Below are positions 3,670 through 33,151 of a stretch of 64,000 nucleotides of DNA, piece by piece. Under the pieces are notes generated by a model, which did not search any database, was not told the origin of the DNA, and worked only from the letters and a program-made list of their open reading frames with translations. A program made the translations under genes and the position numbers. The stretch comes from Candidatus Nomurabacteria bacterium. GTDB taxonomy: Bacteria > Patescibacteriota > Minisyncoccia > Phycocordibacterales > JACOZG01. The stretch is taken from assembly GCA_020847275.1 (NCBI GenBank), contig JADLCI010000007.1:27814-91813 (forward strand). The letters are read 5' to 3'. The number at the start of each line of letters is the position of its first letter. The first letter of the stretch is position 1.

Positions 3670-5307
3670 ATGGCGGAAATGCCGATTGTCAAAGATAGAA
3701 CTTACTTTGCCGAAACTGATTTCCGAGGCAAGCGAACGAAGTTTGGCATTAAGTTTGAAGACCGTGCTCGGCATGTCTATGTGATTGGAAAGACAGGCAT
3801 GGGAAAAAGTACCATGCTGGAGAATATGGCCGTCCAAGATATCGCCGATGGGCACGGTATGGCTTTCATCGACCCGCACGGTAGTACGGCCGAGAAGTTA
3901 TTGGAATATGTGCCAGAGCATCGCATTAAGGATGTGATCTATTTTGCACCGTTCGATTTAGAGAATCCGATTTCTTTCAATGTTATGGAGGACGTGGGGG
4001 CCGACCAACGACACTTGGTGGTGAATGGTTTGATGAGCGCGTTTAAGAAACTCTGGGTAGATGCCTGGAGTGCGCGCATGGAATATATTCTAACCAACAC
4101 CTTGCTTGCCTTACTTGAGTATCCCAACTCCACCCTGCTTGGAGTGAATCGGATGCTTGCCGACAAGGTTTATCGCCAGAAAGTGGTGGATAATATCAAG
4201 GATCCCACCGTCCGTTCTTTCTGGGTTGATGAATTTGCCAAGTACACAGAGCGTTTCGCGGCCGAAGCCACGCCGGCGATTCAGAATAAAATCGGGCAAT
4301 TTACGGGGAATCCGCTGATTCGCAATATCATTGGGCAAACAAAATCGTCTTTCAGTTTTCGTCAAGCAATGGACGAACGAAAAATTTTAATCATCAATCT
4401 ATCCAAAGGCAGAATGGGCGAGGGGAATGCCAATCTACTTGGCTCAATGATTATCACTAAGATTTATCTAGCGGCGATGAGCCGAGCCAACTTGTCGCCA
4501 GCCGAGATGCGCTTGGTGCCCCCGTTCTATTTCTATGTCGATGAATTTCAATCCTTTGCCAACGAATCCTTTGCCAACATTCTTTCTGAGGCAAGGAAAT
4601 ATAAATTATCTCTGACAATCGCCCATCAGTATGTAGAGCAGATGTCGGAAGAGGTACAGGCGGCCGTTTTTGGTAACGTTGGGACGACGGTGGCTTTCCG
4701 GGTTGGTCCGCTTGATGCCGAAATTTTCGAGAAGATTTTTGCTCCCACTTTTAGTATGGAGGATATGGTTAATCTCGGCTTCGCTCAGATCTATTTAACG
4801 ATGATGATCGACGGGGTGGGCTCCCAACCATTTTCGGCGATTACTTTACCACCGATCACACCTCTAGCACGTTCCTATCACGATGAAATTATTTCTTGGA
4901 CACGAAAAACCTATGCGCGGCCTCGGGACATGGTTGAGAAGGACATCGGTAATTGGCATGCGACGCCATCTACGCCAAAGACGTTTGTTCCACCTCTTCC
5001 GCCGAGAACGGCTCAAGTTTCACGACCAAATCCACCAGTTTCTCGAGTGGACGCAGTGACGCCAAAAAAATTTATTGAACCGGAGAAGGTTGTTTCCCTC
5101 AAATCGCTTGAGCAGAAGGTGGAGACAAGAGAGAAGAGTACTGGGCGACACAGTGCTGATTTACGTGATGTGATTGCATCGGTTCAGAAGGAAGTTGCCG
5201 GGGGTCAAGCAAAAACCTTAGAAGAAAAAGCGCCAGAGAAGACAGCTGAAAAAAGACCAAGAAACGAAATTCCCGAAAATGAACTGAAGAAGATGTTGGA
5301 AGTATGA
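3670..5307 (+). CDS. P-loop ATPase of the type IV secretion coupling-protein superfamily (TraD/TraG/VirD4-like, DUF87/HerA-like), stand-alone
   Basis: Walker A motif VIGKTGMGKST. The overall layout matches the T4SS DNA-transfer family proteins that are common as orphans in CPR genomes. The C-terminal tail is charged and low-complexity. Confidence 0.6.
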   Translation: MAEMPIVKDRTYFAETDFRGKRTKFGIKFEDRARHVYVIGKTGMGKSTMLENMAVQDIADGHGMAFIDPHGSTAEKLLEYVPEHRIKDVIYFAPFDLENPISFNVMEDVGADQRHLVVNGLMSAFKKLWVDAWSARMEYILTNTLLALLEYPNSTLLGVNRMLADKVYRQKVVDNIKDPTVRSFWVDEFAKYTERFAAEATPAIQNKIGQFTGNPLIRNIIGQTKSSFSFRQAMDERKILIINLSKGRMGEGNANLLGSMIITKIYLAAMSRANLSPAEMRLVPPFYFYVDEFQSFANESFANILSEARKYKLSLTIAHQYVEQMSEEVQAAVFGNVGTTVAFRVGPLDAEIFEKIFAPTFSMEDMVNLGFAQIYLTMMIDGVGSQPFSAITLPPITPLARSYHDEIISWTRKTYARPRDMVEKDIGNWHATPSTPKTFVPPLPPRTAQVSRPNPPVSRVDAVTPKKFIEPEKVVSLKSLEQKVETREKSTGRHSADLRDVIASVQKEVAGGQAKTLEEKAPEKTAEKRPRNEIPENELKKMLEV

Positions 5308-6350
5308 ATCGTCCACGAGTCCTCATTTTTTCACTAGCTTATTTCCCCTTTGTCGGTGGGGCGGAGGTTGCGGTCAAGGAATTAACTGATCGTTTGGGTG
5401 GATATTTTGAATTCGAGATAATTTCAGCTGATATCAAAAACTTCTGGTCAAAATATTTTTTCCCTTTCTGGGCTTCTCGGCAGGCTAAGCGGCAACACAG
5501 GCTAAGAAAATACGATTTAGTCTGGTCGATCATGGCGAATCAGGCAGGGATGGCCGGTGCTTTGTTCAAAAAGTATCATCCGGGGATCCCTTTTCTGCTT
5601 ACCCTCCAAGAGGGGGATGATTTGGACAGTTTTTTTTACCGTCTGCGTTTGCTTGCCCCTAGGTTGTTTGGGGTTTTTGCTCGCCCAGACCAGATTCAGG
5701 TGATTTCAAACTATCTAGCAGGTTGGGCAAAGAAAATGGGTGCCCGTTGTCCCATTGTGGTTATTCCAAATGGAGTTGATCTGAGCAAGTTTGGAAATCG
5801 AGAGGGTAATCTTGAGAAAGTGATTATTACAACATCACGGTTGGTGAAGAAAAACGGAATAGATTCTTTGGTCCGCTCACTCGCTTTTTTACCAGACGAT
5901 GTTAAACTGCAAATCCTTGGCCTTGGGCCAGAGGAGAAAGCGTTGAGGCGCCTGGTTACCAGTCTTCAACTGTCCGCCAGAGTCTCATTTTTGGGCCAGA
6001 TTGAGAGTAAGAACGTGGGTCAATACTTATCTCATGCCACTGTTTTTGCGCGTCCTTCGCGCTCGGAGGGGCTGGGGAACTCCTTTCTTGAGGCGATGGC
6101 GGCTGGATTGCCTGTTATTGCCACACCGGTTGGTGGAATCACTGATTTTTTGAGAGAAGGGGAGACAGGCTGGTTTTGCGAGGTCAACAACCCAAGATCC
6201 ATTTCTGAAAAGGTGAAATTCATTTTAGCGCCAGAGAATCAAGAACAAGTTACTCGGATAGTTAGCAATGCGCGGAAAATGGTTTATGAAAATTACGATT
6301 GGAATAAATTAGCGGAGAGATTTACTGGCTTATTGAAACAAATGTTATGA
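5304..6350 (+). CDS. Glycosyltransferase family 4 (GT-B)
   Basis: C-terminal GT4 signature EGLGNSFLEAMAAGLPVIATPVGGITDFL...GETGWF. The ATGA overlaps the upstream stop. Confidence 0.8.
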   Translation: MNRPRVLIFSLAYFPFVGGAEVAVKELTDRLGGYFEFEIISADIKNFWSKYFFPFWASRQAKRQHRLRKYDLVWSIMANQAGMAGALFKKYHPGIPFLLTLQEGDDLDSFFYRLRLLAPRLFGVFARPDQIQVISNYLAGWAKKMGARCPIVVIPNGVDLSKFGNREGNLEKVIITTSRLVKKNGIDSLVRSLAFLPDDVKLQILGLGPEEKALRRLVTSLQLSARVSFLGQIESKNVGQYLSHATVFARPSRSEGLGNSFLEAMAAGLPVIATPVGGITDFLREGETGWFCEVNNPRSISEKVKFILAPENQEQVTRIVSNARKMVYENYDWNKLAERFTGLLKQML

Positions 6351-6889
6351 GAATAGTAATCGCTACGGGAATTTATCCGCCCCAGATTGGAGGACCAGCG
6401 CAATATGCGAAAAATTTGGCCGAAGAGTTCATCAAAAAGGGACACAGGGTTAAAATTTTGACTTACCGGCTGGAGAAGCACTTACCTTCTGGAGTTAGAC
6501 ATTTTTATTTTTTTGCCAAGTTGATATTTGCCCTCTGGCGAGTTGATTTTATTTTAGCGCTAGATACTTTTTCCGTTGGGTTGCCAGCCGTTTTGGCGGC
6601 TAGATTGGTTGGTAAAAAGATAATGATTAGGACAGGCGGGGATTTTCTTTGGGAAGGTTACGTGGAACGGACTGGTCATTTGGTTTTATTGCGGGAGTTT
6701 TATGAGAATGTTCGGGGAGGGTCAGTCAGGCTAAATTTCAAAGAGAAGGCTATTTTTGGTTTGACAAAATGGGTAATACATAAAGCTCAAATGATAGTGT
6801 TTAGTACCGAATGGCAAAGGGATATTTGGTCTAAACCGTATCAGTTGAGCCGACAGAAGACGAAAATTATTGAAAATTATTATGGCTAA
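6347..6889 (+). CDS. GT4 glycosyltransferase, N-terminal (acceptor) Rossmann half only; split gene
   Basis: MRIVIATGIYPPQIGGPAQYAKNLAEEF is a typical GT4 N-terminus. The ORF ends after 180 aa, where the next ORF continues the same protein family. Confidence 0.55.
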   Translation: MRIVIATGIYPPQIGGPAQYAKNLAEEFIKKGHRVKILTYRLEKHLPSGVRHFYFFAKLIFALWRVDFILALDTFSVGLPAVLAARLVGKKIMIRTGGDFLWEGYVERTGHLVLLREFYENVRGGSVRLNFKEKAIFGLTKWVIHKAQMIVFSTEWQRDIWSKPYQLSRQKTKIIENYYG

Positions 6890-7331
6890 AATATTCATTG
6901 CTGGTACTAGGAAATTAAAATGGAAAAATTTATCTCTACTTGAGCGCGCTTTCGCTTTGGCCCAGAAGGCTCAACCAGAGCTTGTTCTTGATCTTAATAA
7001 CTGGCCTTACGAAGAATTTTTACAGAAAATAGCAGAGGCCTATGCCGTGATTCTTGTCTCACTCGGAGATATTAGTCCTAATTTGGTTTTGGATGCATTA
7101 CGTTTAGGGAAACCGGTTATTTTGACCACAGAAACAGGATTACGGCAGAGGTTGGGGGAGTCAGTAATTTGGGTGAATCCAGAAGACGAGAAAGATATTT
7201 CACAAAAGATCATCTGGTTGTCCGATCCCGAGAATTATCAACACTCTTGCCAACGCGCAAAGATGTTTGATTTGAAGCATTCGTGGTCGGACATTGCCGA
7301 TGAATTTTTAGACCTAGCTAAAGGTTTATGA
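6882..7331 (+). CDS. GT4 glycosyltransferase, C-terminal (donor) half only; split gene, possibly an authentic frameshift or pseudogene
   Basis: KPVILTTETGLRQRLGESVIWVNP is a GT4 C-terminal motif. The ATG at 6882 overlaps the upstream TAA (6887-6889) by 8 nt. The track start is a TTG at 6870. Confidence 0.5.
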   Translation: MAKIFIAGTRKLKWKNLSLLERAFALAQKAQPELVLDLNNWPYEEFLQKIAEAYAVILVSLGDISPNLVLDALRLGKPVILTTETGLRQRLGESVIWVNPEDEKDISQKIIWLSDPENYQHSCQRAKMFDLKHSWSDIADEFLDLAKGL

Positions 7332-8281
7332 AGGTTTTAATGATTTCCACTGATTCAAAAATTTTCGAACCCCTGAGCGAGGTTCGGTTACGGATGATTA
7401 GTCAGGCCGAAAGTTTTGGCAAGCTCACAATTGCGATTATCGGCAAGAAAAGTTTTTTACCACAAGTAATTAACGACAAGCTGACGGTGTTTTCTCTCGG
7501 ACGTCTGGAGTCTTTTTTCTGGTGCCCGATGAGGGATTATGAACTAGTTACGAGTCAAAACCCCTTCGAGCACGGCTTAATTGGCTGGCTGTGGGCCGGG
7601 AAAATAAATGCCAAATTACAGCTTCAGATTCATACAGATTTTCTCAATCCTTATTTTGCCCAGGAGTCTCTTCTGAACAAAATACGGTTGCGACTAGCAA
7701 AGTTTTTATTGCCACGGGCTGACAGCGTTCGAGTTGTTAGCCAGCGAATTGCTGATTCGCTTGTTGGCGCAGGAATCAGATTAAGACAGAAACCGGTGGT
7801 TCAGCCAGTCAAGATTGATCTCGAAAAAATCAAAAATGAACCGATAAAAATAGATTTACATGACAGATATTCGCAGTTTAAGAAAATAGTTTTAATGGCA
7901 TCTCGTCTGACACGAGAAAAAAATATTGACCTAGCCATTCGGGCGATGAATTCGATTATTAAATCAAGGCCTGGCACCGGTCTGGTCATTGTTGGTTCTG
8001 GACCGGAAGAGGGGAGACTAAAACAACTGGTGAAACAACTGAAGCTAGAAAAAAATGTTTTTTTTGAGTCGTGGACCAACAATCTATCGTCTTTTTATAA
8101 AACAGCCGACCTGTTTCTTTTGACTTCATTTTATGAGGGATATGGAAGGACAATTGTGGAAGCAATGGCTTGTGGTTGTGTTGTTGTTTCGACCGACGTT
8201 GGAGTGGCGAGGGAAGTGGGGGCGATTATCTCTGGGGACAACATTACTGACTTGGTGGAGACACTGGAAAAAATATTATGA
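7328..8281 (+). CDS. Glycosyltransferase family 4
   Basis: LTSFYEGYGRTIVEAMACGCVVVSTDVGVAREV is an E-x7-E-type GT4 motif. Confidence 0.8.
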   Translation: MKVLMISTDSKIFEPLSEVRLRMISQAESFGKLTIAIIGKKSFLPQVINDKLTVFSLGRLESFFWCPMRDYELVTSQNPFEHGLIGWLWAGKINAKLQLQIHTDFLNPYFAQESLLNKIRLRLAKFLLPRADSVRVVSQRIADSLVGAGIRLRQKPVVQPVKIDLEKIKNEPIKIDLHDRYSQFKKIVLMASRLTREKNIDLAIRAMNSIIKSRPGTGLVIVGSGPEEGRLKQLVKQLKLEKNVFFESWTNNLSSFYKTADLFLLTSFYEGYGRTIVEAMACGCVVVSTDVGVAREVGAIISGDNITDLVETLEKIL

Positions 8282-10257
8282 AATTACTAATTGTCACGCA
8301 GGTGGTGGATGAGTCGGATTCGATTTTGGGGTTTTTCCACCGTTGGATTGAAGAGTTTTCTAAACATTACGAAAAGGTTACCGTAATTTGTTTGAAAAAA
8401 GGCGAGTACCATCTACCGGTCAATGTCGAGGTGCTAACTCTTGGTAAAGAGGATGGGGCTTCAAGATCCAAGTATCTCTGGCGTTTTTATAAATATATTT
8501 GGAGTGAGCGGAATAATTACGACACGGTATTTGTGCACATGAATCAAGAGTATGTCCTATTGGGTGGTCTTTTCTGGCGTTTTTGGGGTAAACGCGTTCA
8601 TTTGTGGTACACGCACAAGATGGTTAGCGTAAAATTACGTCTGGCCACTCTTCTATCAGACAAGGTCTTCACTGCGTCCGAAGAAAGTTTCAGATTCGAT
8701 ACACCAAAACTACGTATCGCAGGGCATGGCATAGACACAGACTTTTTTTCTCCTGATTCGAGCGTGGTGCGTTCTGATCACGTTCTCTCCGTTGGACGTT
8801 TGATGAAAAGTAAACGCCATGATCTCATCATTCGTGCTGTGGCATTTGCAGGTAAAGAGCTTCGGATCATTGGCGACGGGCCGGAGCGTAAAAATCTTGA
8901 GGCACTCGCCCATATGATTGGGGCAAGGGTTTATTTTCTGGGTGGGCTTAATCAGTCGCAGGTGCGGGATCAATATCAGAAAGCTGCTTTTTTTGTACAC
9001 ACCAGTGAGACCGGAAGCTTGGATAAGGTGACACTTGAAGCCCTTGCGTGTGGCTTATCTGTAGTTACAACAAGTGATGCGTATAGAAATTTTCCAGTAC
9101 GTAAAGTACAGGCAACACCGGAGGCTATTGCCGCGGGGCTGGAAACAACACAAGACGGAAGCGAAAATGCAAAGTTTGTTCGAGAGCACCATAATCTTCG
9201 TCGTTTGATCGTCTATCTATCACGGGAGATGAGTGTATTGGGACCACGTGTCGCTTTTATTTTTACACGATCTCGGAAGGAAATTATACGTGGCGTACAG
9301 ACCGGTCAGTGTGCGGATACGCCCCTTTATGGCATGAATCATATACCCCATGCTGACTATTTTACCTTGGCGTCTAAATCGATGCGCGCCGTGTTTATCA
9401 TTCTGCATCTTTTCCGGTATGACTTTGTTATTGCGCAGGACAATCTCTTACTTGGTTACATTGTTTCTATTTGTTCTCGGACGTTTAATCTTAAGACTCG
9501 GTGGTTGTATGTGGCGATAAATTCTTCCACTCTCATGCGACGACACGCCAAGCATCCGATACGGCTTTTTATCCTTAAAAAGTTTTGGTCGAGTTACTCG
9601 CATATCATCTGCCTTTCTTTCGATCAGCTTAATGATTTTATCCAAATCGGTCTCCCTCAAGCACAACTTTCATTTATTCCATTTGGTGTGGACGCCACTT
9701 TTTTTCAACCTACCGACATTCATCATGATGAAAATTTAATTGTAAGTGTCGGGCGTGACGGTGGCCGTGATTACCGTACACTTTTTTATGTCGCTGGACT
9801 GGTCGGACATCGATTCGTTGTTGTCGCTGGACAGAAAAATATTCCGCATGATGTTTCGATTCCTCCAAATATGTCGATAGTTTATGACCGGAGCATTGTT
9901 GAAGTTCGAGATTTATATACTCGGGCTCGACTCATTGTCGTTGTTTCAAAGGATGCTAGAATTCCGGATGGTTCGGACTGCTCGGGACAGACGGTAATAC
10001 TTGACGCTCTTGCTGCTGGCAAAACCGTAGTTGCAACGCATCGTTCTTGGATTGCGGACTATTTTGTTCCTGGGCGGGATCTTATTGTGGTTGAGCCTGG
10101 TAATTCCGAAGCTGTTGCGACCGCGATTACCACTCTTTGGAACGACGCTGAAAGACGGGGGGAATTATCCGCCTCCGGACGTAACAAGGTGTCTATGTGC
10201 TACACGACAAAAATTTTTGCCACAGCCCTCCTTAAGCTTATGGAATCTATAAAATGA
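8278..10257 (+). CDS. Two-module glycosyltransferase, a fusion of two complete GT4 units
   Basis: N-module motif GSLDKVTLEALACGLSVVTT. C-module motif GQTVILDALAAGKTVVATHRSWIADYF...GRDLIVVEPGN. The ORF is continuous over 659 aa. Confidence 0.7.
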   Translation: MKLLIVTQVVDESDSILGFFHRWIEEFSKHYEKVTVICLKKGEYHLPVNVEVLTLGKEDGASRSKYLWRFYKYIWSERNNYDTVFVHMNQEYVLLGGLFWRFWGKRVHLWYTHKMVSVKLRLATLLSDKVFTASEESFRFDTPKLRIAGHGIDTDFFSPDSSVVRSDHVLSVGRLMKSKRHDLIIRAVAFAGKELRIIGDGPERKNLEALAHMIGARVYFLGGLNQSQVRDQYQKAAFFVHTSETGSLDKVTLEALACGLSVVTTSDAYRNFPVRKVQATPEAIAAGLETTQDGSENAKFVREHHNLRRLIVYLSREMSVLGPRVAFIFTRSRKEIIRGVQTGQCADTPLYGMNHIPHADYFTLASKSMRAVFIILHLFRYDFVIAQDNLLLGYIVSICSRTFNLKTRWLYVAINSSTLMRRHAKHPIRLFILKKFWSSYSHIICLSFDQLNDFIQIGLPQAQLSFIPFGVDATFFQPTDIHHDENLIVSVGRDGGRDYRTLFYVAGLVGHRFVVVAGQKNIPHDVSIPPNMSIVYDRSIVEVRDLYTRARLIVVVSKDARIPDGSDCSGQTVILDALAAGKTVVATHRSWIADYFVPGRDLIVVEPGNSEAVATAITTLWNDAERRGELSASGRNKVSMCYTTKIFATALLKLMESIK

Positions 10258-11372
10258 CGGCGATAAATCAACTTAGACTTTATGTTAACCCTAAGTGGCG
10301 GCGCAAGGGCATTCACACACCCCTTCTTAATCCTTGGTGGGGAAATCCACACGAGGAAGCTTCAATTTTTTCTAAGTTGATGTTCGACAGCTATTCATTT
10401 GACACTAGCCTCTATGTGGTAACTGACGATGTTTCAACAGCAGAGATGGTTTTACCGCCGTATCCGCATCAATGGTTTTTGCGCCACGATACGGAGCTAT
10501 TTGATGAGTGTGTAAAAATTGCTAGCGAATGTAACCTTCCCATTCTAATTGATGGATTGGGGGATATTGAGCACCCAATTGAAGTCAAAAATGCCTATAT
10601 CTTACGTTACGGAGGGTATCATTTTCTTCCTGAGCGCGGTCGTATTGTTGTACCACTCCATGTCGATGATTTACTTGAACGGTGTTGTGGTGGAAGGTTT
10701 GATGTTAGAAAGAAAAAAGTAGGGAAACCAATTATTGGATTTGCGGGGTGGACAGAGCTTTCCTTTTCTCAGTATTTACGTACGATAATAAAAGAGCTTC
10801 CGGTGCGGCTGCTTGGAGTTTTTGATACCCGTTATCGCGCGTGCACTAAGGGAATATTGTGGCGACAGAAGACGATTAAAATTCTTCAAAAATCAGGACA
10901 GGTAAGACTCAATCTTCGTACGCGGCGTTCTTTCTCTGCAAGTCCGAAAACAGCGGAGGGGGATATGAAAAAACTTAGAGAGGAGATGGTAGATGTAATA
11001 TTACAAAGTGATTATGCCCTTGACGTGCGCGGTGACGCAAACAATTCAGCTAGGCTTTTTGAAATACTGTCCCTTGGGCGTATACCGATTATTGTCGATA
11101 CCGAGCGCAATTTTCCCTTTAGTGATAAAATTGATTACGCGTCTTTTGCGGTCATGATTGACTTTCGTGAACTCAATAACTTACCGAGTCGGATAGCTGA
11201 GTTTCACGATAATATTTCTCCAGAACACTTTGAACAAATGCAAAAAAATGCTCGGGAAGTTTTTGTTCGTTATTTTCGTATTGATGCAATCATGCGGTCA
11301 CTCGTGGAAGATCTGCACACAAGGATTTCATCAGGGGCTGGTTCTCTCCAAGGTGAAACAAATAGACCATAA
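10254..11372 (+). CDS. Exostosin-like glycosyltransferase (GT47 family-like)
   Basis: ARLFEILSLGRIPIIVDTERNFPFSDKIDYASFAVMI resembles the exostosin C-terminal motif. Confidence 0.5.
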   Translation: MTAINQLRLYVNPKWRRKGIHTPLLNPWWGNPHEEASIFSKLMFDSYSFDTSLYVVTDDVSTAEMVLPPYPHQWFLRHDTELFDECVKIASECNLPILIDGLGDIEHPIEVKNAYILRYGGYHFLPERGRIVVPLHVDDLLERCCGGRFDVRKKKVGKPIIGFAGWTELSFSQYLRTIIKELPVRLLGVFDTRYRACTKGILWRQKTIKILQKSGQVRLNLRTRRSFSASPKTAEGDMKKLREEMVDVILQSDYALDVRGDANNSARLFEILSLGRIPIIVDTERNFPFSDKIDYASFAVMIDFRELNNLPSRIAEFHDNISPEHFEQMQKNAREVFVRYFRIDAIMRSLVEDLHTRISSGAGSLQGETNRP

Positions 11373-11381
11373 TATTGCATT

Positions 11382-11753
11382 ATGCGTGGGCTGAAATTTT
11401 TTCTCACTGGCTTAGTTGGCCTTAGTGTCAATCTCGGCGTGTTTAATTTGCTGTATCTTTTAGGGTTGCCGTATCTCTATGGGTCGGTTATGAGTTTTCT
11501 TGTTGCAATGGTCGTTGGTTTCCTACTTCAAAAGTATTGGACCTTTGAGGATTGCTCTCGTGAACGCGCATATGTTCAGTTCGCATCATATGCCGCATTG
11601 ACGTCGTGTAATCTTTTATTAAACACATTCATCGTGTACGCGCTTGTTGATTACGCCGATGTTTACTATCTTGTCGCTCAAGCCACAGGGGCAGGGCTGC
11701 TATCTCTCCTTAGTTATTTTGTCTACCGTTTCTACATTTTTAGGGGGTCTTAG
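11382..11753 (+). CDS. GtrA-family small membrane protein (polyprenol-phosphate-sugar flippase-like)
   Basis: The protein is 123 aa with four predicted TM helices. N-terminus FFLTGLVGLSVNLGVFNLL and the WTFE motif are typical of GtrA. Confidence 0.75.
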   Translation: MRGLKFFLTGLVGLSVNLGVFNLLYLLGLPYLYGSVMSFLVAMVVGFLLQKYWTFEDCSRERAYVQFASYAALTSCNLLLNTFIVYALVDYADVYYLVAQATGAGLLSLLSYFVYRFYIFRGS

Positions 11754-14375: not shown

Positions 14376-14384
14376 TCCTACGAC

Positions 14385-15095: not shown

Positions 15096-15099
15096 CAAT

Positions 15100-26296: not shown

Positions 26297-27331
26297 ATGA
26301 ACAACAAGACTGTCAACATTGGAGGTCGCTGTGTAGGAGAAGGTCAACCTGTTTTTATTATCGCAGAGGTTAGCGCAAACCATCGCGGGAAGATTGAAAC
26401 CGCACTATCTGCTATTGACATAGCGGCAGATGCTGGTGCGGATGCAGTGAAGTTTCAACACCTAACCCATAATAAAATTGCCGCTGAACCGCTTTCTGAT
26501 TTTTATAAGTCTGCAGAATTGCCAGACGGTTGGACAGAAAAACTTGTTGAACGGTCAAAGAAAAAAAATATTTTTTTTCTATCAACGCCATTTGACCTAG
26601 AAGCCGTGGATCTTCTCGATGAAATTGGGGTCCCAGCTTTTAAGGTCGCGTCTTATGAGATGACCGACGATGTTTTGTTGCGACATATTTCTAGAAAGGG
26701 GAAACCGATTATACTTTCTACTGGTATGGCTTATCTTGAAGAAGTTAAACACGCGATTAACGTTATTAAGCAAGAAGATAATGAACAGGTAATTGCGCTC
26801 CATTGCGTTTCTCTCTACCCCCCTGAGTTTAGAGACCTGAATCTCCGAGTAATAGAAACAATGCGTCGAGAATTGGGCTGTCCAATCGGGTATTCTGATC
26901 ATGCGAATCCGTCATCGAATGTGGCAACTCTTGGCGCAATTGCTCTTGGTGCTTGCGTGATTGAACGTCACATAACCGACTCACAAGAAGGTGGCAGTAA
27001 TGATGATAAAAATTCAATGACGCCAGAGCAACTGAAACAAATGGTCATAGAGATTCGTGATCTTTCGGCGGCTCTCTCTGGTGCGGGAGTTAAGGCACCA
27101 GTGTCTGATCCTGGTCGTGGCGTGGACGAGATAAGAGAGCGTAGTACACGTCGTTCACTCTATGCTGTACGCGATATTGTTGAAGGGGAAGCTATGTCTG
27201 CAGACATGATTGTCACATTGAGGCCCATGAAAGGCATTGAACCAAAGGATTTTCAGCAAGTCATGGGTCGAAAGACGCTTCGTGCTATTTCAGCACGTTC
27301 GCCGATTACCTGGCAAGATATAGAGAGATGA
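26297..27331 (+). CDS. Nonulosonic acid synthase (NeuB/PseI/LegI family) with C-terminal SAF domain
   Basis: PVFIIAEVSANHRGKIETAL, AGADAVKFQ, GYSDH and a C-terminal SAF-like domain. Confidence 0.9.
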   Translation: MNNKTVNIGGRCVGEGQPVFIIAEVSANHRGKIETALSAIDIAADAGADAVKFQHLTHNKIAAEPLSDFYKSAELPDGWTEKLVERSKKKNIFFLSTPFDLEAVDLLDEIGVPAFKVASYEMTDDVLLRHISRKGKPIILSTGMAYLEEVKHAINVIKQEDNEQVIALHCVSLYPPEFRDLNLRVIETMRRELGCPIGYSDHANPSSNVATLGAIALGACVIERHITDSQEGGSNDDKNSMTPEQLKQMVIEIRDLSAALSGAGVKAPVSDPGRGVDEIRERSTRRSLYAVRDIVEGEAMSADMIVTLRPMKGIEPKDFQQVMGRKTLRAISARSPITWQDIER

Positions 27332-28215
27332 AAAAACATTCTGGAGAAATTTTAGACAAAAAGGACGGGGCGAAAGTGATTGATTGCGGTCTGTGTGGTT
27401 TTGCTCACGTTTTACCAATTCCCAGTGATGAGAAGCTTAAACATTTTTACGAAAAAGAATTTTATCAACACGAGAGGCCAAATTATTTCAAGGAAACTAA
27501 GGAAGATTTATCTTGGTGGATGTCCACTTATAATAACTATTACCAGCTTTTTGAGCTTAGGACCAAGGGCCGTAAACTTCTTGACATTGGATCTGGACCA
27601 GGACATTTCTTGATGTGTGGCAAAAAACGCGGCTGGGAGACAACCGGGATAGAGCCATCTACTTCGGCAGCCCGCTACAGTCAGAAGCGTGGCCTCGTTA
27701 CATACAATGATTTTTTTAATTATGATCATGTAAAAAACCTGGGATTCTTTGATGTTGTGCATGCGGCGATGGTCCTTGAACACGTGCCACATCCTACGGG
27801 ATTTATTAATGACATGAAAAAAATGTTGAAACATAATGGTCTCATTGCTATTTTTTCTCCCAACGACTATAATCCTCTCCAGACTGTTTTACGTACAGAG
27901 CATAAATTCAAGCCATGGTGGGTTGTACCGAGACATCACCTTAACTACTTTACCGTGAAGAGTATGGCTCATCTGTTGCAACGGCTTGGATTTGTAATTG
28001 AGGATGTCCTTGGAACCTATCCCCTTGAAACTTTTTTACTGGCTGGAAAGAACTACGTTGGTAATCACGGGGTAGGGCGTGCTTGTCACGCGAAGCGTAA
28101 AATTTTTGAGATGGGACTTTATAAAAAAGATCCCACGCTGATTAATGATCTCTATAGAGGGCTGGCCACTGTTGGTCTCGGACGAGAGTTTCTGATTATT
28201 GCCAGAAAGAAATAA
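27328..28215 (+). CDS. Class I SAM-dependent methyltransferase with N-terminal Cys-rich region
   Basis: Motif I LLDIGSGPGHF. An acidic region DVVHAAMVLEHVPHP follows. N-terminal CGLCGF Zn-ribbon-like segment. Confidence 0.7.
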   Translation: MKKHSGEILDKKDGAKVIDCGLCGFAHVLPIPSDEKLKHFYEKEFYQHERPNYFKETKEDLSWWMSTYNNYYQLFELRTKGRKLLDIGSGPGHFLMCGKKRGWETTGIEPSTSAARYSQKRGLVTYNDFFNYDHVKNLGFFDVVHAAMVLEHVPHPTGFINDMKKMLKHNGLIAIFSPNDYNPLQTVLRTEHKFKPWWVVPRHHLNYFTVKSMAHLLQRLGFVIEDVLGTYPLETFLLAGKNYVGNHGVGRACHAKRKIFEMGLYKKDPTLINDLYRGLATVGLGREFLIIARKK

Positions 28216-28221: not shown

Positions 28222-29427
28222 ATGAAAATTTCGACAGACAATAAACCGCCCGCGATATGGTTGATTACTGGAGGGACAATGCAAAGGCCAGTGGTTGAGA
28301 GGGTAAAAAATCGTGGCTATAAACTTATAGTAAGCGACGGTTCTTCGGAGTGCGCACTCCGTTCTTTTGCGGATGAATTTTTGCACCTCGATATTTTTGC
28401 AATCAAAGAGAATGTCGCCGCATCAGATGAACTGAAGAAACGTTACGACATTTGTGCGGTCTTTACATCAGCGTCAGATTGTCACGAAACTGTCGCTACT
28501 GTGGCTCGACACCTGGGACTTCCTGGCATTGATCCCAGTATTTCGCGCGTATGCAGATATAAATATGAGACACGTAGTATTTTTACGAAAGCAGGGATTC
28601 CTCAGCCGAAGTTTAGAATTGTTGGAACATATGATGACGCGCTGAAAGCTCTAGACGATATCGGTATTCCTGCGGCGCTAAAGGCGACAAACAATGCCGG
28701 TAGTCGCGGTTTTGCTCAGATTATGTCGGAATCGGACTTAACCCCAGAAGCGTTTGCGCATTCCGTTAAGAATGGAACAACTGGCTCAGCTATCATCGAG
28801 GAGCTTCTTATCCCCGTGAAAGACGAGATTGCAGAACAATCGGTCGAAACACTTTGGTTTGGTGGGCGAATGTATTGGCTAAATTGGGTTGATAGGATGT
28901 TCCGTCAGGATATGGGGTTTTTTCCAGAGTTTGACGCAGGTGTGTACGGTAATCTTCCTTGGGCGGTGGAAATAGGGCATCTAAATCCAGCGGTACACGG
29001 CTTCGAAACAACAGCAGCCGTGCAGGATATGGTAGAAAAAGCCGGTAAAGCGCTCGGTTTAGATAAACAAAAAGGGGGACACATATTAAAGCACGACATT
29101 ATGCTTACTGAAAAAGGGCCATATATTATTGAGTCTACACCACGTTTATCTGGTGGATGGGATTCTAGTGGCTCGACTCTAATGCGCGGTGCAGACTTTA
29201 TTGATGGTGCAATAGAGATGGCACTAGGTGGTCAGCTGACAGCAGAAATCTTCTACAAATATTTCGTGTACAAGTACCCACAGACATATGTGGCGATGCT
29301 TTCTGAAATACCCAAAGACCCAAAAGATTGTATTGGTAGACGTTTTGCTTTTGATGGTGGTCTCGATCCAGATGAAGCAGTGGCGAAAGCATATGAAAAA
29401 ATAAAAAAAGGAGAATTTATTACATGA
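28222..29427 (+). CDS. ATP-grasp domain ligase
   Basis: The pre-ATP-grasp N-terminus is followed by GIPQPKF...ALKATNNAGSRG, consistent with the ATP-grasp fold. Confidence 0.65.
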   Translation: MKISTDNKPPAIWLITGGTMQRPVVERVKNRGYKLIVSDGSSECALRSFADEFLHLDIFAIKENVAASDELKKRYDICAVFTSASDCHETVATVARHLGLPGIDPSISRVCRYKYETRSIFTKAGIPQPKFRIVGTYDDALKALDDIGIPAALKATNNAGSRGFAQIMSESDLTPEAFAHSVKNGTTGSAIIEELLIPVKDEIAEQSVETLWFGGRMYWLNWVDRMFRQDMGFFPEFDAGVYGNLPWAVEIGHLNPAVHGFETTAAVQDMVEKAGKALGLDKQKGGHILKHDIMLTEKGPYIIESTPRLSGGWDSSGSTLMRGADFIDGAIEMALGGQLTAEIFYKYFVYKYPQTYVAMLSEIPKDPKDCIGRRFAFDGGLDPDEAVAKAYEKIKKGEFIT

Positions 29428-30278
29428 TGAATTTTATGAAATGTGTTTGGTGTGGTAAAACTGGAAAAAAGAACTATCACGCACGTGTCCGGTGGAAAGA
29501 CCTTGATTCTAAATGGTATCGGTGTTCCAGTTGCAGTAGTTTAATGATTTTACCACTCCCGTCCAAGAAGTTAATAAAAAAAGTTTACGAGAACGACTAT
29601 TTGTGTAAAAAATTACAACCACACATTGGCGTAGATAGCAGGGTTAGATATTCGAAAGAATATCGTCCTACGGTTTTTGCTGAGTATGCCATGTCTCTCG
29701 AGGATTTAGGGGTCAAACCCTCAGAGGTAAAATCAATATTAGATTTTGGGTGTGCTGATGGTATTTTTCTTGAATTTTGTGAGAAATACTTTAGCCCAAA
29801 AACCGTGCTTTATGGCGCAGATATCTCGAAAGACATGCTCGAACAGGCAAAAAGAAAGGCTTGGAATGTGGTGCATATCGATGATATTAAAAAACTTAAA
29901 AAGAAATTTGATCTCATTACTCTTTGGGATGTTATAGAGCACGTCGAGGCCCCCGCTGTGGTAATATCTAGCCTGAAGAAGTTTCTTAACCCCAAGGGGA
30001 AAATCTTATTAGAAACACCACGTTTCGGTGTTTTGGCTGAGTTTTCAGGGGAAAATTGGCCGCATCTTTTACCCGTTCAACACCTGAGTGTCGCATCGAA
30101 AGAGGGTATGCAAAAACTTGCTCGGAGAACCGGTTTTAAAATAGATAGACATTGTAGCTTTGGCGCAAATGCGCCAAGTGCCGTCATACCCCAACCATAC
30201 AAAAAAATCTTTGATCAGATGGCCAAAAAACTAGATTTTGGAGATGTGCAAATTTTAACACTAAAACTGGAGAAATAA
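29424..30278 (+). CDS. Class I SAM-dependent methyltransferase with N-terminal CxxC...CxxC zinc ribbon
   Basis: CVWCGK...CSSCSS Zn-ribbon. Motif I ILDFGCADGIF. LITLWDVIEHVEAP. Confidence 0.72.
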   Translation: MMNFMKCVWCGKTGKKNYHARVRWKDLDSKWYRCSSCSSLMILPLPSKKLIKKVYENDYLCKKLQPHIGVDSRVRYSKEYRPTVFAEYAMSLEDLGVKPSEVKSILDFGCADGIFLEFCEKYFSPKTVLYGADISKDMLEQAKRKAWNVVHIDDIKKLKKKFDLITLWDVIEHVEAPAVVISSLKKFLNPKGKILLETPRFGVLAEFSGENWPHLLPVQHLSVASKEGMQKLARRTGFKIDRHCSFGANAPSAVIPQPYKKIFDQMAKKLDFGDVQILTLKLEK

Positions 30279-30280: not shown

Positions 30281-31045
30281 ATGAGTTTTTACAAACCAGG
30301 AAACCAAGAGCTTTCTCTCCTAGATTTTGAGTTGTTACAGTTGACGAAGGGGGAGAGTTTAGAGTGGGTGTCGAATGATTTTGAGGTTGTTGCTGTCATA
30401 ATTGAGGGTGAGTGTTCCGTCTCGTCGGAGATGCAGACCTGGAAGTTATCTCGGCAAACGGTGTTTAAGGATGCGGCTTCTGCTGTTTTTGCTTCACCCG
30501 GAGTTAAACTATCCATTATTGCTAACGAGAAAACTACTCTTGCGATGTGTAAGGCGCGCGCAGAGAAAAGATTTCAGACAACTTTTATTCCACCAGAGAA
30601 TGTTAATAGCGAATGGCGAGGTAGGGAAGGTTACAGAAGAAGAGTCTCGAATATTTTAAATACGGAGACGCAAACACAAAGGATTGCGGTGGGTGAGACG
30701 ATCAATGAGCCTGGACAGTGGTCATCTTTTCCCTCACATAAGCACGATACTTACGAAAAGAGTGGAGACAGGACGGTGGAGGTTCCACTTGAAGAAATTT
30801 ATTATTTTAGGTTGGAACCAAAAACTGGTTTTGGTCTCCAGCGTCTATATACCAAGGACGGTTCCTTTGACGAGGCACGCGTGATAAAAGATGGCGATGT
30901 AGTTCAAATTCCCAAGGGCTACCACCCGGTCGCTAGCATTCCTGGCCATAGCTTATATTATCTTTGGATGCTTGGAGGAGAAAATAGAGTCTATATATGG
31001 AACACTGATCCAGGATTACGTTGGTTGGAAAGAAATGGTAATTAA
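30281..31045 (+). CDS. Cupin-fold sugar isomerase of the KduI/IolB family (5-dehydro-4-deoxyglucuronate / 5-deoxyglucuronate isomerase-like)
   Basis: DGDVVQIPKGYHPVASIPGHSLYYLWMLGGEN is the KduI/IolB C-terminal cupin motif. Confidence 0.55.
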   Translation: MSFYKPGNQELSLLDFELLQLTKGESLEWVSNDFEVVAVIIEGECSVSSEMQTWKLSRQTVFKDAASAVFASPGVKLSIIANEKTTLAMCKARAEKRFQTTFIPPENVNSEWRGREGYRRRVSNILNTETQTQRIAVGETINEPGQWSSFPSHKHDTYEKSGDRTVEVPLEEIYYFRLEPKTGFGLQRLYTKDGSFDEARVIKDGDVVQIPKGYHPVASIPGHSLYYLWMLGGENRVYIWNTDPGLRWLERNGN

Positions 31046-31094: not shown

Positions 31095-31673
31095 ATGGCG
31101 TATTCTTGGGTGAATGAAATAAGGTTAGATAATCTTTGTGCCAGCGGTAACGACGAAGTGCTGGTATTTGAGTCATTGGGAGAATGTGCCAAGGTGTATC
31201 TTAAGGGCAACACGATTGAACGGGTTGTTTTTACTCTAGGTGGTGAGGCGCCAGTTACCATTGAGTCTGATAGTGCGCAAGCGATAGTGGTGGGAAATGG
31301 CAATACACAGCGGGATGTTTTTCACTACATAAGACCTGGTGGCCCAGCTCCCACACTACGTCTTGGTATCACGGTTCATCGTGGAGAAGGTTCGTGGTCT
31401 AGTCTGCCACATAATTTTGAACTAAACACGGAGTCTGGATTTGAGGAGGTTTTCTTTTACCTTCTCGAAAACTCAAGTAGACGTGGCATTCAGGTCGGAA
31501 AGGGTGTCTGGTTTGATAACACTCCCGTGGATACGGTTTGGCCAATTAAGGATCGCGCATTTGGCACTGTGCCCATGGGATATCATCCGGTTGTTGGTGA
31601 GCCGGGTGTTAAGGTTTCGTATGTTTGGGCCTATCTTGCAAAGAAGAAGGAATGGGAAAAGGTAAGACAATAG
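31095..31673 (+). CDS. Second cupin-fold protein, related to the upstream KduI/IolB-like gene
   Basis: TVPMGYHPVVGEPGVKVSYVWAY parallels the upstream IPKGYHPVASIPGHSLYYLWML motif. Confidence 0.45.
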   Translation: MAYSWVNEIRLDNLCASGNDEVLVFESLGECAKVYLKGNTIERVVFTLGGEAPVTIESDSAQAIVVGNGNTQRDVFHYIRPGGPAPTLRLGITVHRGEGSWSSLPHNFELNTESGFEEVFFYLLENSSRRGIQVGKGVWFDNTPVDTVWPIKDRAFGTVPMGYHPVVGEPGVKVSYVWAYLAKKKEWEKVRQ

Positions 31674-31687
31674 AACTAAGATAAAAT

Positions 31688-32368
31688 ATGAAAATAAAAA
31701 AAACAGCTGTTGTGGTTGGTGCTACTGGAAACATTGGCACGGCGCTCGTTCAGGCACTTTCAGAAGATGGTTATTTTGTCGATCCAACTTGGCTCGGGGC
31801 CGACCGTCCAGATGTTCGGAATTCGTCGTCATATGATCATTTGCCACCCAAGATTGATCTCGCGGTTTATCTCGCGGGAATAACTCATAACGATGTTGCG
31901 GATGAACTGGACGAAGAAAAATGGGATGAAGTCCTAGACATAAATCTCAAAGGAGCTTTTCTTTTCGCCAAGGCTGCCTTTCCCTCAATGAAAGAGGCGG
32001 GGCAGGCGACGTTTGTTGCAATGTCATCGATAAATGCAACTCATCCCTATCCGCGTCGTGTTGCTTATTCGGCATCAAAAGCTGGTATTGAGGGACTGAT
32101 CCGTCAACTGGCGATAGAGTGGGGAAAATATAATATAGCATCTCATGCTATCCGACTCGGACATCTTTCTGGGGTCATGAAGTCTTCGGTTATGAATATG
32201 GCTGTTCTTGACGCGGTTAAAGCAAAAATTCCCTCTGGCCGATTGATTCCACCCAAGGCGGTTGCCGACTACATCGTTTGGTTGGGGAAGGGAAACGCAC
32301 AATATGTTTCAGGAGGTGTTATTGATTTTGACCCCGCCTATATGATTAACCGTAACCCGTTGATCTGA
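31688..32368 (+). CDS. Short-chain dehydrogenase/reductase (SDR), KduD-like
   Basis: TGATGNIGTAL glycine motif. Catalytic YSASKAG (YxxxK). Confidence 0.8.
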   Translation: MKIKKTAVVVGATGNIGTALVQALSEDGYFVDPTWLGADRPDVRNSSSYDHLPPKIDLAVYLAGITHNDVADELDEEKWDEVLDINLKGAFLFAKAAFPSMKEAGQATFVAMSSINATHPYPRRVAYSASKAGIEGLIRQLAIEWGKYNIASHAIRLGHLSGVMKSSVMNMAVLDAVKAKIPSGRLIPPKAVADYIVWLGKGNAQYVSGGVIDFDPAYMINRNPLI

Positions 32369-32386
32369 TTCATTCTTTCATCCAAC

Positions 32387-33151
32387 ATGCAACAGAGATT
32401 TGGTATCGCGACTCGTTTCTATGGCCTCTCAGAAAAAGATGTGCAACGTCTTGGGGCTTGGGTTGACGCTGCTCTAGGGGTTGTATCTCCAGAAAATGTG
32501 TATGTGGCTATACGTTCAGAATTAGATCTCTCTGGAAGTCAGGACTTTATGCGTCGGAGTTATCCAGGAGTCAATATGTTTCCGGTGACACCTTGGGGCA
32601 AGGTCGTTCAGGCACCAAACGCCCTTCTTCTCAAGTGTGCAGAGCAAAGAATGAGCCATATCCTTTTCGCAAGCACAGAATATACGGTAACAAAGTCCCT
32701 TACCGCACTTCTCATGTCACACCTTGATGAGCAAACGCTGGTCGTTGGCGCGCGTCTGCCCTCACATGACTTTAAGGCTTCATCGGGGGAGAGAATTTTG
32801 GTGAAAAACGCTAGCGGACTCCAGATTCCCTGGAATACCTGTGCCTTGTGGTCTCTTGAACATCTTGTTCACACTGGTTTCGTACTTGCCGCTGACTCAC
32901 TTCATGATCCTGACAATGCGGGAATGGAGGAAATGGGAACCATCGCCGCGCAACAGATTCTGTGGCCAGGTTCGGCCTTGGCCAAACTAGTTTCTCCTCT
33001 CAGTGGAGATATTGTAATGAACACGTACGGATGGGACGTCAAACGACAAGAACGTTATGTTCATAATCTGGAATCAAAGAATTCCCGTTCTACGACCCAA
33101 CTCGAACGTTTAGCCATGTCAGCTCCAGATGTTTATCATATCGACGTGTGA
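32387..33151 (+). CDS. Hypothetical protein; GC is noticeably higher than its neighbours
   Basis: Clean 254-aa ORF with no motif I can assign. The run of 4-nt overlaps ends here. Confidence 0.45.
   Translation: MQQRFGIATRFYGLSEKDVQRLGAWVDAALGVVSPENVYVAIRSELDLSGSQDFMRRSYPGVNMFPVTPWGKVVQAPNALLLKCAEQRMSHILFASTEYTVTKSLTALLMSHLDEQTLVVGARLPSHDFKASSGERILVKNASGLQIPWNTCALWSLEHLVHTGFVLAADSLHDPDNAGMEEMGTIAAQQILWPGSALAKLVSPLSGDIVMNTYGWDVKRQERYVHNLESKNSRSTTQLERLAMSAPDVYHIDV

Follow-up and report, generated by a model that had tools for sequence, protein, structure and literature searches.

What is built by a 28 kb run of glycan genes in a patescibacterial genome, and does the run exist as assembled? We addressed these questions for a stretch of DNA of 64,000 nucleotides (nt), hereafter the window, which spans positions 27,814 to 91,813 of contig JADLCI010000007.1 (assembly GCA_020847275.1). 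The source is a metagenome-assembled genome classified at NCBI as 'Candidatus Nomurabacteria', and the genes of the window carry locus tags IT398_015xx-016xx, including IT398_01590 and IT398_01655. Three proteins encoded in the window have 100% identical counterparts among the NCBI entries for this genome, on a contig of 296,217 bp. The original prediction, made from the nucleotide sequence alone, described window positions 5304-33151 as a glycan super-operon, extraordinary for this genome, which together with the genes that follow it would form a complete system for synthesis, export and ligation. We consider it rather probable that the window contains one copy of a locus of ~34 kb (3670-38029) that is common to many Patescibacteria and builds a complex surface glycoconjugate with a modified pseudaminic-type nonulosonic acid. 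The glycan probably coats the cell surface. The window is coding almost entirely on the + strand and contains housekeeping genes of a kind typical of the candidate phyla radiation (CPR), namely those for SecA, GatB, MurB, MurJ, BipA, LepA, FtsH, RNR, and RNase P RNA. Its SecA is at most ~61% identical to that of any GTDB species representative, and the top matches are Patescibacteria.

The gene run could in principle be a chimera of assembly or binning, or a foreign island recently acquired by horizontal transfer. The GC content of 5304-33151, which is ~3 points below that of the flanks, is what such an origin would predict. Yet the tetranucleotide signature of the cluster correlates with that of the rest of the window (r=0.88) as well as the two halves of the rest correlate with each other (r=0.895), and no composition break at or in the cluster was seen by this measure within the window. 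Moreover, the gene order, including both flanks, was recovered in a relative with 71-94% protein identity that had been assembled independently from two SRA runs (loci L081/L085 and L082; related loci are denoted by the letter L and a number throughout). The flanks kept there are a TrwB-like gene upstream, and the genes for a DUF218 protein, an ABC exporter, and a Wzy_C-TPR protein downstream. Divergence from this close relative is uniform over the locus, with synonymous divergence (dS) of ~0.8-1.45 in every gene compared, and seven or more assemblies of related Patescibacteria, made independently and several of them more distant, have the same gene order. Chimerism, which according to the original prediction should reveal itself as a break in GC or coverage, is refuted because the same gene order recurs in independent assemblies; synteny is the decisive evidence here. 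An artefactual or recent foreign origin is therefore extremely improbable, and the comparison indicates that the 28 kb run is real.

The comparison of the locus among relatives, proposed as a check in the original prediction, also bears on how widespread the locus is. Whole-locus synteny was found in L081/82/85, L083, L084/86, L087, L088, L089, L093, L125, L134, and L138 (L083 is from JGI 3300037810, L084 and L086 are from JGI 3300011416, and L088 is from GCA_028866135.1). A common backbone can be read from L083, L084/L086, L087, L088, and L089. It begins with genes for GT4 glycosyltransferases and a GT47-like enzyme, an optional set of GtrA, inverted GT2, GT-C and methyltransferase genes, a GT4 gene, a GT9 gene, and one or two TagF-like genes. 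The middle part encodes PseB, PseC, a class-III aminotransferase, a cytidylyltransferase, an aldo-keto reductase, NeuB, a methyltransferase, an ATP-grasp protein, and a second methyltransferase. It ends with genes for two cupins, a short-chain dehydrogenase (SDR), an orphan, DUF218, and the ABC exporter. A JGI metagenome scan with the single sequence of TagF-like protein 1 returned no match, but an alignment-based scan with the TagF-like family succeeded and recovered 50 more loci, many from groundwater. Among the 25 non-redundant loci of at least 15 kb from that scan, the aminotransferase is present in 14 and the ABC exporter (56-68% identity) in six. The ratio of nonsynonymous to synonymous substitution rates (dN/dS), determined for 26 gene pairs against the 71-94% identical relative, is 0.03-0.22 in every case. 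The genes of the locus, including ORFs (open reading frames) that look like fragments, are under purifying selection. Judged by synteny, the locus is a trait common to many Patescibacteria and not a peculiarity of this bin, so that the description of it as extraordinary for this genome does not stand.

The identity of the product is indicated by the middle of the locus, where a nonulosonate pathway had been predicted. The protein encoded at 21035-22054 (all features are on the + strand unless stated otherwise) is PseB, the inverting UDP-N-acetylglucosamine (UDP-GlcNAc) 4,6-dehydratase, with 424 bits against an NCBIfam equivalog cut-off of 407.75 (TIGR03589), and its neighbor at 22051-23193 is the aminotransferase PseC, with 463.3 bits against a cut-off of 423.5 (TIGR03588). 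A class-III aminotransferase resembling glutamate-1-semialdehyde (GSA) aminomutase (23190-24521) follows; all relatives have a 443-amino-acid (aa) orthologue of it. The next gene (24526-25302) encodes a PF02348 cytidylyltransferase (111.5 bits), which scores 26.9 bits with the PseF model (cut-off 205.7) and is nearer to KdsB-like models; its closest solved structure is 6OEW (E=9e-46). We presume it to be the synthetase of the cytidine monophosphate (CMP)-activated nonulosonate, because it is the only cytidylyltransferase of the locus. An aldo-keto reductase identified by Pfam (25299-26225) and a NeuB-family nonulosonate synthase (26297-27331; Pfam NeuB, 244.7 bits) complete this part. The best NCBIfam match of the synthase is PseI, with 293.5 bits against a cut-off of 340.25, followed by NeuB with 279.8 bits against 399.65.

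Further downstream lie genes whose products would tailor the sugar: two S-adenosylmethionine (SAM)-dependent methyltransferases recognized by Pfam (27328-28215 and 29424-30278), on either side of an ATP-grasp ligase (28222-29427) that resembles BacD and L-amino-acid ligases, is a predicted amide-forming modifier, and is 50-87% identical across many loci; an IolB/KduI-family cupin isomerase (30281-31045; TIGR04378, 223.8 bits against a cut-off of 205); a short KduI/IolB-like cupin of 192 aa (31095-31673; dN/dS 0.12), which is a conserved gene and not a fragment; an SDR of 226 aa recognized by Pfam (31688-32368; dN/dS 0.04); and a conserved orphan of 254 aa (32387-33151; dN/dS 0.07) that is 87% identical to its counterpart in L085 and 64% identical to that in L086. 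The orphan had no match in Pfam (E≤1), NCBIfam, or PDB. In the closest relative, the IolB-equivalog cupin is a 50-aa remnant (L085, 12003-12155) and the short cupin paralogue is retained; the first cupin appears dispensable, since it has been reduced to that remnant. In L089, genes resembling ATP-citrate lyase/succinyl-CoA ligase and citrate synthase are inserted between those for PseC and the class-III aminotransferase (14085-16736), and the cytidylyltransferase is fused to a GFO_IDH_MocA oxidoreductase. The insertions and the fusion suggest lineage-specific N-acyl modifications of the nonulosonate.

Taken as a pathway, PseB and PseC would turn UDP-GlcNAc into UDP-4-amino-4,6-dideoxy-beta-L-AltNAc, a step established at the family level because both proteins pass their equivalog cut-offs. 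The amino sugar would then be N-acylated, released from UDP, condensed with phosphoenolpyruvate by the NeuB-type synthase, and activated with CMP by the sole cytidylyltransferase, while the class-III aminotransferase, the aldo-keto reductase, the ATP-grasp ligase, the two methyltransferases, the two cupins, and the SDR may carry out tailoring. The canonical PseB-C-H-G-I-F pathway of Campylobacter and Helicobacter, which serves flagellin glycosylation, has the PseB and PseC equivalogs, the NeuB-family synthase, and the PF02348 cytidylyltransferase in common with the locus. It differs in that the window lacks PseH (a GNAT protein), PseG, and a Maf transferase, its synthase and cytidylyltransferase score below the PseI and PseF cut-offs, and the locus adds the whole set of conserved tailoring enzymes just listed, from the GSA-aminomutase-like aminotransferase to the SDR. 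These additions point to a pseudaminic acid (Pse)-type product that is modified and non-canonical. No flagellar genes were found in the window by Pfam, and flagellin is therefore an unlikely target.

In pseudaminic acid loci, pseG and pseH usually sit immediately upstream of the NeuB gene. A DUF218 gene takes that place directly upstream of NeuB in L084 (19016-19636), L089 (20358-20933), and L138, and PseG is absent from all these loci; a GNAT gene is present in the distant relative L089. In the window, a DUF218 protein identified by Pfam is encoded at 33288-33989, in synteny with the locus in relatives. From its gene position alone, we speculate that DUF218 may stand in for PseG or PseH without being their orthologue.

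A second group of genes, at the front of the locus, encodes glycosyltransferases (GTs), mostly of family GT4. GT4a (5304-6350; Pfam Glycos_transf_1, 125 bits; dN/dS 0.08) is followed by a GT4 enzyme split into two ORFs, the N-terminal half at 6347-6889 (Pfam Glyco_transf_4; dN/dS 0.10) and the C-terminal half at 6882-7331 (Pfam; dN/dS 0.05). These correspond to the two Rossmann halves of the fold, and their stop and start codons overlap by 8 nt in the sequence ATGGCTAA, which is conserved in L081. The split is kept in L081/L082, while L083 encodes the enzyme in one ORF and L084 has it fused to the GT4 that precedes it. Next come GT4b (7328-8281; Pfam), a double-domain GT4 of 659 aa with two GT-B modules (8278-10257; two Glycos_transf_1 stretches), and a GT47 (exostosin)-like enzyme (10254-11372; PF03016, 43.7 bits against a cut-off of 33.4) that is conserved in L081-L089. 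After an interposed cassette lie GT4c (15100-16215, with its start ATG at 15100 or 15130; Pfam) and a GT-B protein resembling GT9, the heptosyltransferase family (16205-17203; PF01075, 33.3 bits against a cut-off of 22). The latter is far below the heptosyltransferase equivalog cut-offs of NCBIfam, and its gene is present in 16 of the 25 related loci and absent from L084. Pfam thus bears out the early call of a large glycan locus, read in one direction, in which GT4s are numerous and a GT47-like and a GT9-like enzyme are present. These soluble GT-B enzymes (about six GT4 domains including the split one, the GT47-like, and the GT9-like enzyme) would build an oligosaccharide backbone on the cytoplasmic face of the membrane; the acceptor, a lipid or some other molecule, would be primed by an enzyme whose gene lies elsewhere.

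Two assignments of these and neighboring genes were considered and dropped. The GT9-like protein found no support as PseG: it has weak heptosyltransferase matches only and is absent from L084. The split GT4, the short cupin, and the short SDR are not pseudogene fragments, since they are kept likewise in relatives with dN/dS of 0.04-0.12.

Between the glycosyltransferases and the nonulosonate genes lie two genes for TagF-like GT-B proteins, protein 1 of 641 aa (17206-19131; PF04464, 25 bits) and its paralogue, protein 2, of 613 aa (19141-20982); TagF-like transferases had been part of the original prediction. They are 24% identical to each other, and both pass the Glyphos_transf (PF04464) gathering threshold. 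The structure model is a GT-B fold (predicted local distance difference test, pLDDT, 88.5) with generic matches only, namely MurG, the CMP-Kdo domain of WaaA, NeuC, TagF, and TarL. The N-terminal 370 aa of the proteins had no match in Pfam (E≤1) or in a sequence search of PDB. In 23 of the 25 loci, a TagF-like homologue lies within 10 kb of, and in the same direction as, genes for NeuB, PseB, PseC or the cytidylyltransferase, and since the family adjoins nonulosonate genes so regularly, we regard the TagF-like proteins as candidate nonulosonate transferases; this is an inference from association, not proof. Distant homologues carry a LIC12162 domain, and the LIC12162 family adjoins neuABC in Herbaspirillum (PMC6679464). 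The scores with the BFO_1060 family (NF046086), 31.7 and 28.4 bits against a cut-off of 200, make them distant relatives and not members of this family; BFO_1060 is an orthologue of the TagB-like Pse/Leg transferases of Tannerella forsythia, whose function has been proven genetically (PMC5420450). By analogy with the latter, one or both TagF-like paralogues may transfer the CMP-nonulosonate.

The O-glycosylation locus of T. forsythia (Tanf_01245/TFUB4_00887/BFO_1060; PMC5420450, PMC5378307) is comparable in other respects as well. It is also a multi-GT locus with a PseB/PseC/PseI-type pathway, uses a TagB/GT-B-like nonulosonate transferase in place of a classical sialyltransferase, and places non-acetyl modifications on the nonulosonate. 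Unlike it, the window encodes two TagF-like paralogues, which reach 28-32 bits against the cut-off of 200, are ~250 aa longer, and have an N-terminal region without a Pfam match; the host is a CPR bacterium and presumed to lack an outer membrane.

The same proteins admit a different interpretation, in which the locus makes a teichoic-acid-like or other phosphate-containing polymer, the TagF-like proteins are true CDP-alditol-phosphate transferases or polymerases, and the nonulosonate is a minor component or a cap. The cytidylyltransferase, the aldo-keto reductase, and the class-III aminotransferase would then make a CDP-(amino)alditol donor, and the polymer would leave by an ABC-transporter route. 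Such a polymer would account for the Glyphos_transf scores of both proteins, for the distance of the cytidylyltransferase from PseF (26.9 bits), for the conservation of the aminotransferase-cytidylyltransferase-reductase trio, which has no role in the canonical Pse pathway, for the kinase and the inositol-monophosphatase-family gene that L083 adds at the position of the trio, and for the presence of an ABC exporter and no Wzx. However, the cytidylyltransferase belongs to PF02348, the ulosonate-activating KdsB/NeuA/PseF family, and not to the TagD or TarI families; no PF01467 (TagD-type) or IspD-type cytidylyltransferase and no TagO/TagA-type linkage-unit genes were found in the window by Pfam. 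If the only cytidylyltransferase of the locus served a CDP-alditol, none would be left in the locus to activate the nonulosonate. In addition, the TagF-like family goes together with NeuB, PseB, and PseC in 23 of the 25 loci, and the TagB-like proteins of T. forsythia are proven Pse/Leg transferases. We consider a teichoic-like polymer quite unlikely and prefer the Pse-type glycoconjugate.

The cassette that interrupts the front glycosyltransferases would decorate this glycan. It consists of genes for a GtrA-family small membrane protein (11382-11753; PF04138, 76.7 bits against a cut-off of 26.1), a GT2 enzyme on the - strand (11700-12467; PF00535, 71.8 bits), a GT-C fold integral-membrane glycosyltransferase of 592 aa without a Pfam match (12597-14375), and a class I SAM methyltransferase recognized by Pfam (14385-15095). 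The GT2 enzyme is a predicted polyprenyl-phosphate sugar synthase of the GtrB/DPM1/AglJ type; it has 255 aa and no predicted transmembrane helices, and its best NCBIfam matches, AglJ (85 against 325 bits) and dolichyl-phosphate hexose transferase (69 against 375 bits), are below the cut-offs. The 592-aa protein, with ~9-11 predicted transmembrane segments, was shown to have a GT-C fold by its AlphaFold2 model (pLDDT 87; predicted template modelling score, pTM, 0.86), which Foldseek matches to DPY19, STT3, AftA, PglB, and ArnT with probability 1.0. One of its homologues is fused to a GT2 domain, one is named DUF2029, and the protein is 55-66% conserved across more than 120 protein clusters of Patescibacteria. 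The trio of Gtr proteins postulated earlier is thereby accounted for: GtrA by Pfam, the GT2 enzyme as closest to AglJ and dolichyl-phosphate hexose transferases, and the third member by its modelled fold.

With its GtrA-family protein, its GT2 enzyme predicted to be a polyprenyl-phosphate sugar synthase, and its GT-C enzyme, the cassette recalls the Gtr systems (GtrA/GtrB/GtrC) of Shigella and Salmonella phages, ArnC/ArnT, and Ppm1/PimE. Unlike the phage systems, the window has a 255-aa GT2 without predicted C-terminal transmembrane helices, an inverted GT2 gene, an accompanying methyltransferase, and a GT-C protein without a Pfam family but with broad conservation in Patescibacteria. Because it lacks a Pfam family and is 55-66% conserved in more than 120 clusters, the GT-C protein is not a serotype-converting GtrC of the phage type. 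The position and orientation of the cassette, including the reversed GT2 gene, agree among the window, L087, and L088, whereas L081, L083, and L084 lack the cassette; the methyltransferase accompanies it in L087, L088, L090, and L092. By this distribution, present in the first three and absent from the others, the cassette is an optional accessory decoration step. Its patchy occurrence, judged from gene order, reflects loss or gain within an old arrangement. In genomes that have it, GT2 would make the polyprenyl-phosphate sugar, GtrA would help its translocation, and GT-C would add the sugar to the glycan outside. A recent insertion unique to this genome was ruled out as an origin of the cassette by its identical position and orientation in L087 and L088.

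Export and attachment are encoded at the downstream end, where the original prediction had placed an MsbA-like exporter and a Wzy-like protein with TPR repeats. Both were found. The exporter (34070-35830), preceded by its own promoter-like site, is a fused transmembrane domain-nucleotide-binding domain (TMD-NBD) ABC protein of the MsbA/PglK/HepA type, whose NCBIfam scores (HepA family, 323 bits; MsbA, 302 bits; PglK, 223 bits) are all below the cut-offs. It is 56-90% identical and syntenic in eight loci, and the more distant loci that have it, six in number, carry it with 56-68% identity beside TagF-like and NeuB genes; by synteny it is a conserved partner of the locus. This PglK/MsbA-like exporter would carry the product across the membrane. 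The pgl system of Campylobacter jejuni likewise has cytoplasmic GT4s (PglA, PglH, and PglJ; the matches in the window are weak and PglH/PglJ-like) and a fused TMD-NBD exporter, PglK, which the exporter of the window matches with the above 223 bits. Unlike pgl, the window has neither the priming enzyme PglC nor PglB, and its exporter is below every equivalog cut-off.

The Wzy_C protein (35930-38029; PF04932, 90.4 bits against a cut-off of 31.7) belongs to the superfamily of O-antigen ligases, polymerases, and O-oligosaccharyltransferases. It is a membrane protein with ~12 transmembrane segments and a C-terminal TPR part, and matches no PglL or WaaL equivalog model of NCBIfam. In the least supported step of the scheme, this core protein may join the glycan to its acceptor, be it a protein, a lipid or the wall. 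In L085, L086, and L123, its gene follows the locus, and Wzy_C-TPR - (MurB) - SecA - GatB forms a core syntenic block in Paceibacteria-type genomes (L002, L003, L004, L007, and L008). In the window (35930-47339), MurB is relocated downstream of SecA (45016-45903). The assignment of the Wzy-like protein to the glycan system as its ligase is not supported, since this core block is also found in Paceibacteria that have no cluster gene in the 4-7.5 kb available upstream. Either the locus simply lies upstream of Wzy_C-TPR, a core envelope gene, or it makes use of this gene.

If Wzy_C-TPR acted as an O-oligosaccharyltransferase similar to PglL or TfpO, the locus would serve general protein O-glycosylation: a Pse-capped lipid-linked oligosaccharide would be flipped by the ABC exporter and transferred en bloc to pilins, to S-layer proteins or to the PKD proteins rich in Ser/Thr, which is the version that the original prediction preferred. 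The Wzy_C domain is common to PglL and TfpO, and the order of ABC exporter and Wzy_C-TPR is kept in L085, L086, and L123. Five predicted secreted or membrane-anchored proteins with 19-26% Ser+Thr are encoded in the window (233-1159, 1988-3646, 41614-42987, 43088-43867, and 43961-44863), two of them with PKD/Ig-like domains. The closest characterised Pse-capped glycans sit on proteins, for example on the S-layer proteins of T. forsythia, and the pilin of Pseudomonas aeruginosa 1244 also carries a Pse-capped glycan. Against this version, five related genomes have Wzy_C-TPR next to MurB/SecA without a cluster gene in the 4-7.5 kb available upstream, there is no PglL or WaaL equivalog match, and no enzyme that would prime a lipid-linked oligosaccharide is encoded in the locus. 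The PKD gene beside the locus, at 1988, is absent from the closest relative, where there are only ~90 nt between the neighboring - strand gene and the TrwB-like gene. Protein O-glycosylation in this form is, in our judgement, unlikely, though of some merit.

The boundaries and the transcription of the locus also differ from the original prediction. We count 27 ORFs in 5304-33151, close to the roughly 28 genes stated before; 26 are on the + strand and one, GT2, is on the - strand, so that GT2 is indeed the only reversed gene. Start codons were reset from orthologues at 6882, 12597, 15100 or 15130, 21035, and 23190 (the ORF list originally had 6870 for the second half of the split GT4 and 15025 for GT4c). 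With these starts, neighboring genes overlap at 13 of the 26 internal junctions. The overlap is 4 nt (ATGA) in 11 cases, and 8 nt and 11 nt in one case each; eight other junctions are gaps of 18 nt or less, and three are gaps of 49-71 nt. The remaining two are the convergent GtrA/GT2 pair, with a 54-nt overlap, and the divergent GT2/GT-C pair, with a 129-nt spacer. The statement that most genes overlap therefore applies to half of them, and the remainder mostly nearly abut. Similarly, 5304-33151 stands as a core run, but the chain of overlapping genes starts one gene earlier, at 3670, with the gene for a TrwB-like ATPase that shares an ATGA overlap with the first GT4 gene, and the conserved locus reaches ~38029 downstream. 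The earlier family calls (GT4s, GT47-like, GtrA, GT2, GT9, two TagF-like proteins, and the nonulosonate genes) hold at Pfam gathering thresholds. The families in the run include Glyphos_transf (twice), Polysacc_synt_2, DegT, Aminotran_3, NeuB, CTP_transf_3, and aldo-keto reductase, and the locus has ~12 glycosyltransferase domains. No regulatory RNA was found in the locus by an Rfam scan.

The first gene of the chain (3670-5307) encodes a soluble P-loop ATPase similar to TrwB, VirD4, and TraD (Pfam TrwB_AAD_bind, 33.6 bits), with no predicted transmembrane segment. No other protein of the region is as conserved as this ATPase, which has 94% identity to L081 and a dN/dS of 0.027; a TrwB-like gene is also upstream of the locus in L083. 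A predicted promoter (3656-3669), with the extended -10 element TGTTATAAT followed by 8 nt and the ATG, precedes it and is of the leaderless type. The 18 nt before ATG 3670 are identical in L081, while dS is ~1.2 in the flanking genes.

Other predicted transcription signals are distributed over the locus. The GT2 gene has its own promoter-like site, TATAAT-N8-ATG, with the -10 element at 12481 on the - strand, and the GT-C gene has a TATACT/TATGAT element ~12 nt upstream (about 12579) that is common to relatives. The best σ70-like promoter match of the region, TTGACA-18-TATACT (33185-33214; 11 of 12 positions match), lies upstream of DUF218. It is followed by an intrinsic terminator with an 11-bp stem and then T7 (34003-34028), whose hairpin and T-run are kept in L085, and by a TTATAAT promoter-like site before the ABC exporter gene (34050-34056) that is conserved in L085. 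There is no gap longer than 71 nt in 12597-33151, and no terminator-like site with more than eight stem pairs was found inside 5304-33151. Since generic scans for σ70 promoters and terminators gave no enrichment over shuffled sequences, we used individually strong or conserved sites only. The predicted units are 3670-~11753; GT2 on the - strand; 12597-33151; DUF218, with the strong terminator behind it; and the ABC exporter, read from a conserved promoter of its own. The locus is thus predicted to be transcribed as three or more units on the + strand and a single gene on the - strand, starting from several promoters. The term super-operon is not supported by these motif predictions, with one gene inverted in a divergent promoter region, several conserved -10 elements, and the terminator at 34003-34028. 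Perfect TATAAT elements 8-13 nt upstream of an ATG without a Shine-Dalgarno sequence were seen at 1974-1987, 3656-3669, 12468-12486 (- strand), 34051-34069, and 51237-51252, which suggests leaderless or near-leaderless mRNAs; clear GGAG sites are present at other genes (29424, 30281, and 33288).

Several observations weigh against a Pse-type surface glycoconjugate as the product. Neither a PseG-like match nor a GNAT/PseH protein was found in any ORF of the window by Pfam and NCBIfam, and the NeuB-type synthase and the cytidylyltransferase fall short of the PseI and PseF cut-offs. Searches with the same two databases revealed no priming phosphoglycosyltransferase of the PglC, WbaP or WecA type and no Wzx in the locus or the window; with these proteins and PseG and PseH missing, the system cannot be called complete, as it had been. 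The window encodes no identifiable acceptor. The link of Wzy_C-TPR to the glycan appears to be one of adjacency, as illustrated by the five genomes with this gene and no cluster gene in the 4-7.5 kb available upstream, and the whole operon structure is a prediction from sequence motifs.

Some of the missing functions might be filled by unusual proteins of the locus. In a wider proposal, which we hold to be rather improbable, the locus represents an undescribed, Paceibacteria-type glycosylation system, in which DUF218, the ATP-grasp protein or the 254-aa orphan replaces PseG/PseH, the TagF/LIC12162-like proteins of ~630 aa are nonulosonate transferases, and the TrwB/VirD4-like ATPase takes part in assembly or export of the glycoconjugate. 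Under this proposal, a Pse-type coat on pili or on the cell surface would mediate host attachment or phage evasion. DUF218 is a candidate for the replacement because of its place directly before NeuB in L084, L089, and L138. The TrwB-like ATPase may join assembly or export because its gene stands first in the operon and its conservation exceeds that of every enzyme encoded there.

Other features of the window lie outside the locus. Bacterial RNase P RNA of class A (128.7 bits) is encoded at 56159-56467, tRNA-Gly(CCC) at 60563-60634, and tRNA-Ile with a UAU anticodon at 62980-63054. An RRM_1 RNA-binding protein of 100 aa (47706-48008) is followed by a membrane protein of the fatty-acid desaturase family (48019-48972), which is unexpected in a lineage generally thought to be without lipid biosynthesis.

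We found no paper that links Patescibacteria or CPR bacteria with pseudaminic or nonulosonic acids; the papers we found on these genomes make only general statements on encoded glycosyltransferases and other surface-modification proteins. The system described here is made of standard parts with the standard logic of glycan loci, in an under-studied lineage. Its interest lies in its conservation in the lineage and in the split GT4, the TrwB-like ATPase, and the possible non-orthologous replacements of PseG and PseH. A pseudaminic-type locus of ~30-34 kb provides targets for glycoproteomics, for lectin or metabolic labelling, and for the enzymology of a poorly known family of nonulosonate transferases. 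If the typical patescibacterial genome size of ~0.6-1 Mb applies, a few percent of the genome would be devoted to the locus, which points to sialic-acid-like surface decoration as a trait of the lineage and not a one-off. For these ultra-small and mostly episymbiotic bacteria, contact with the host cell and with phages is made through the surface.

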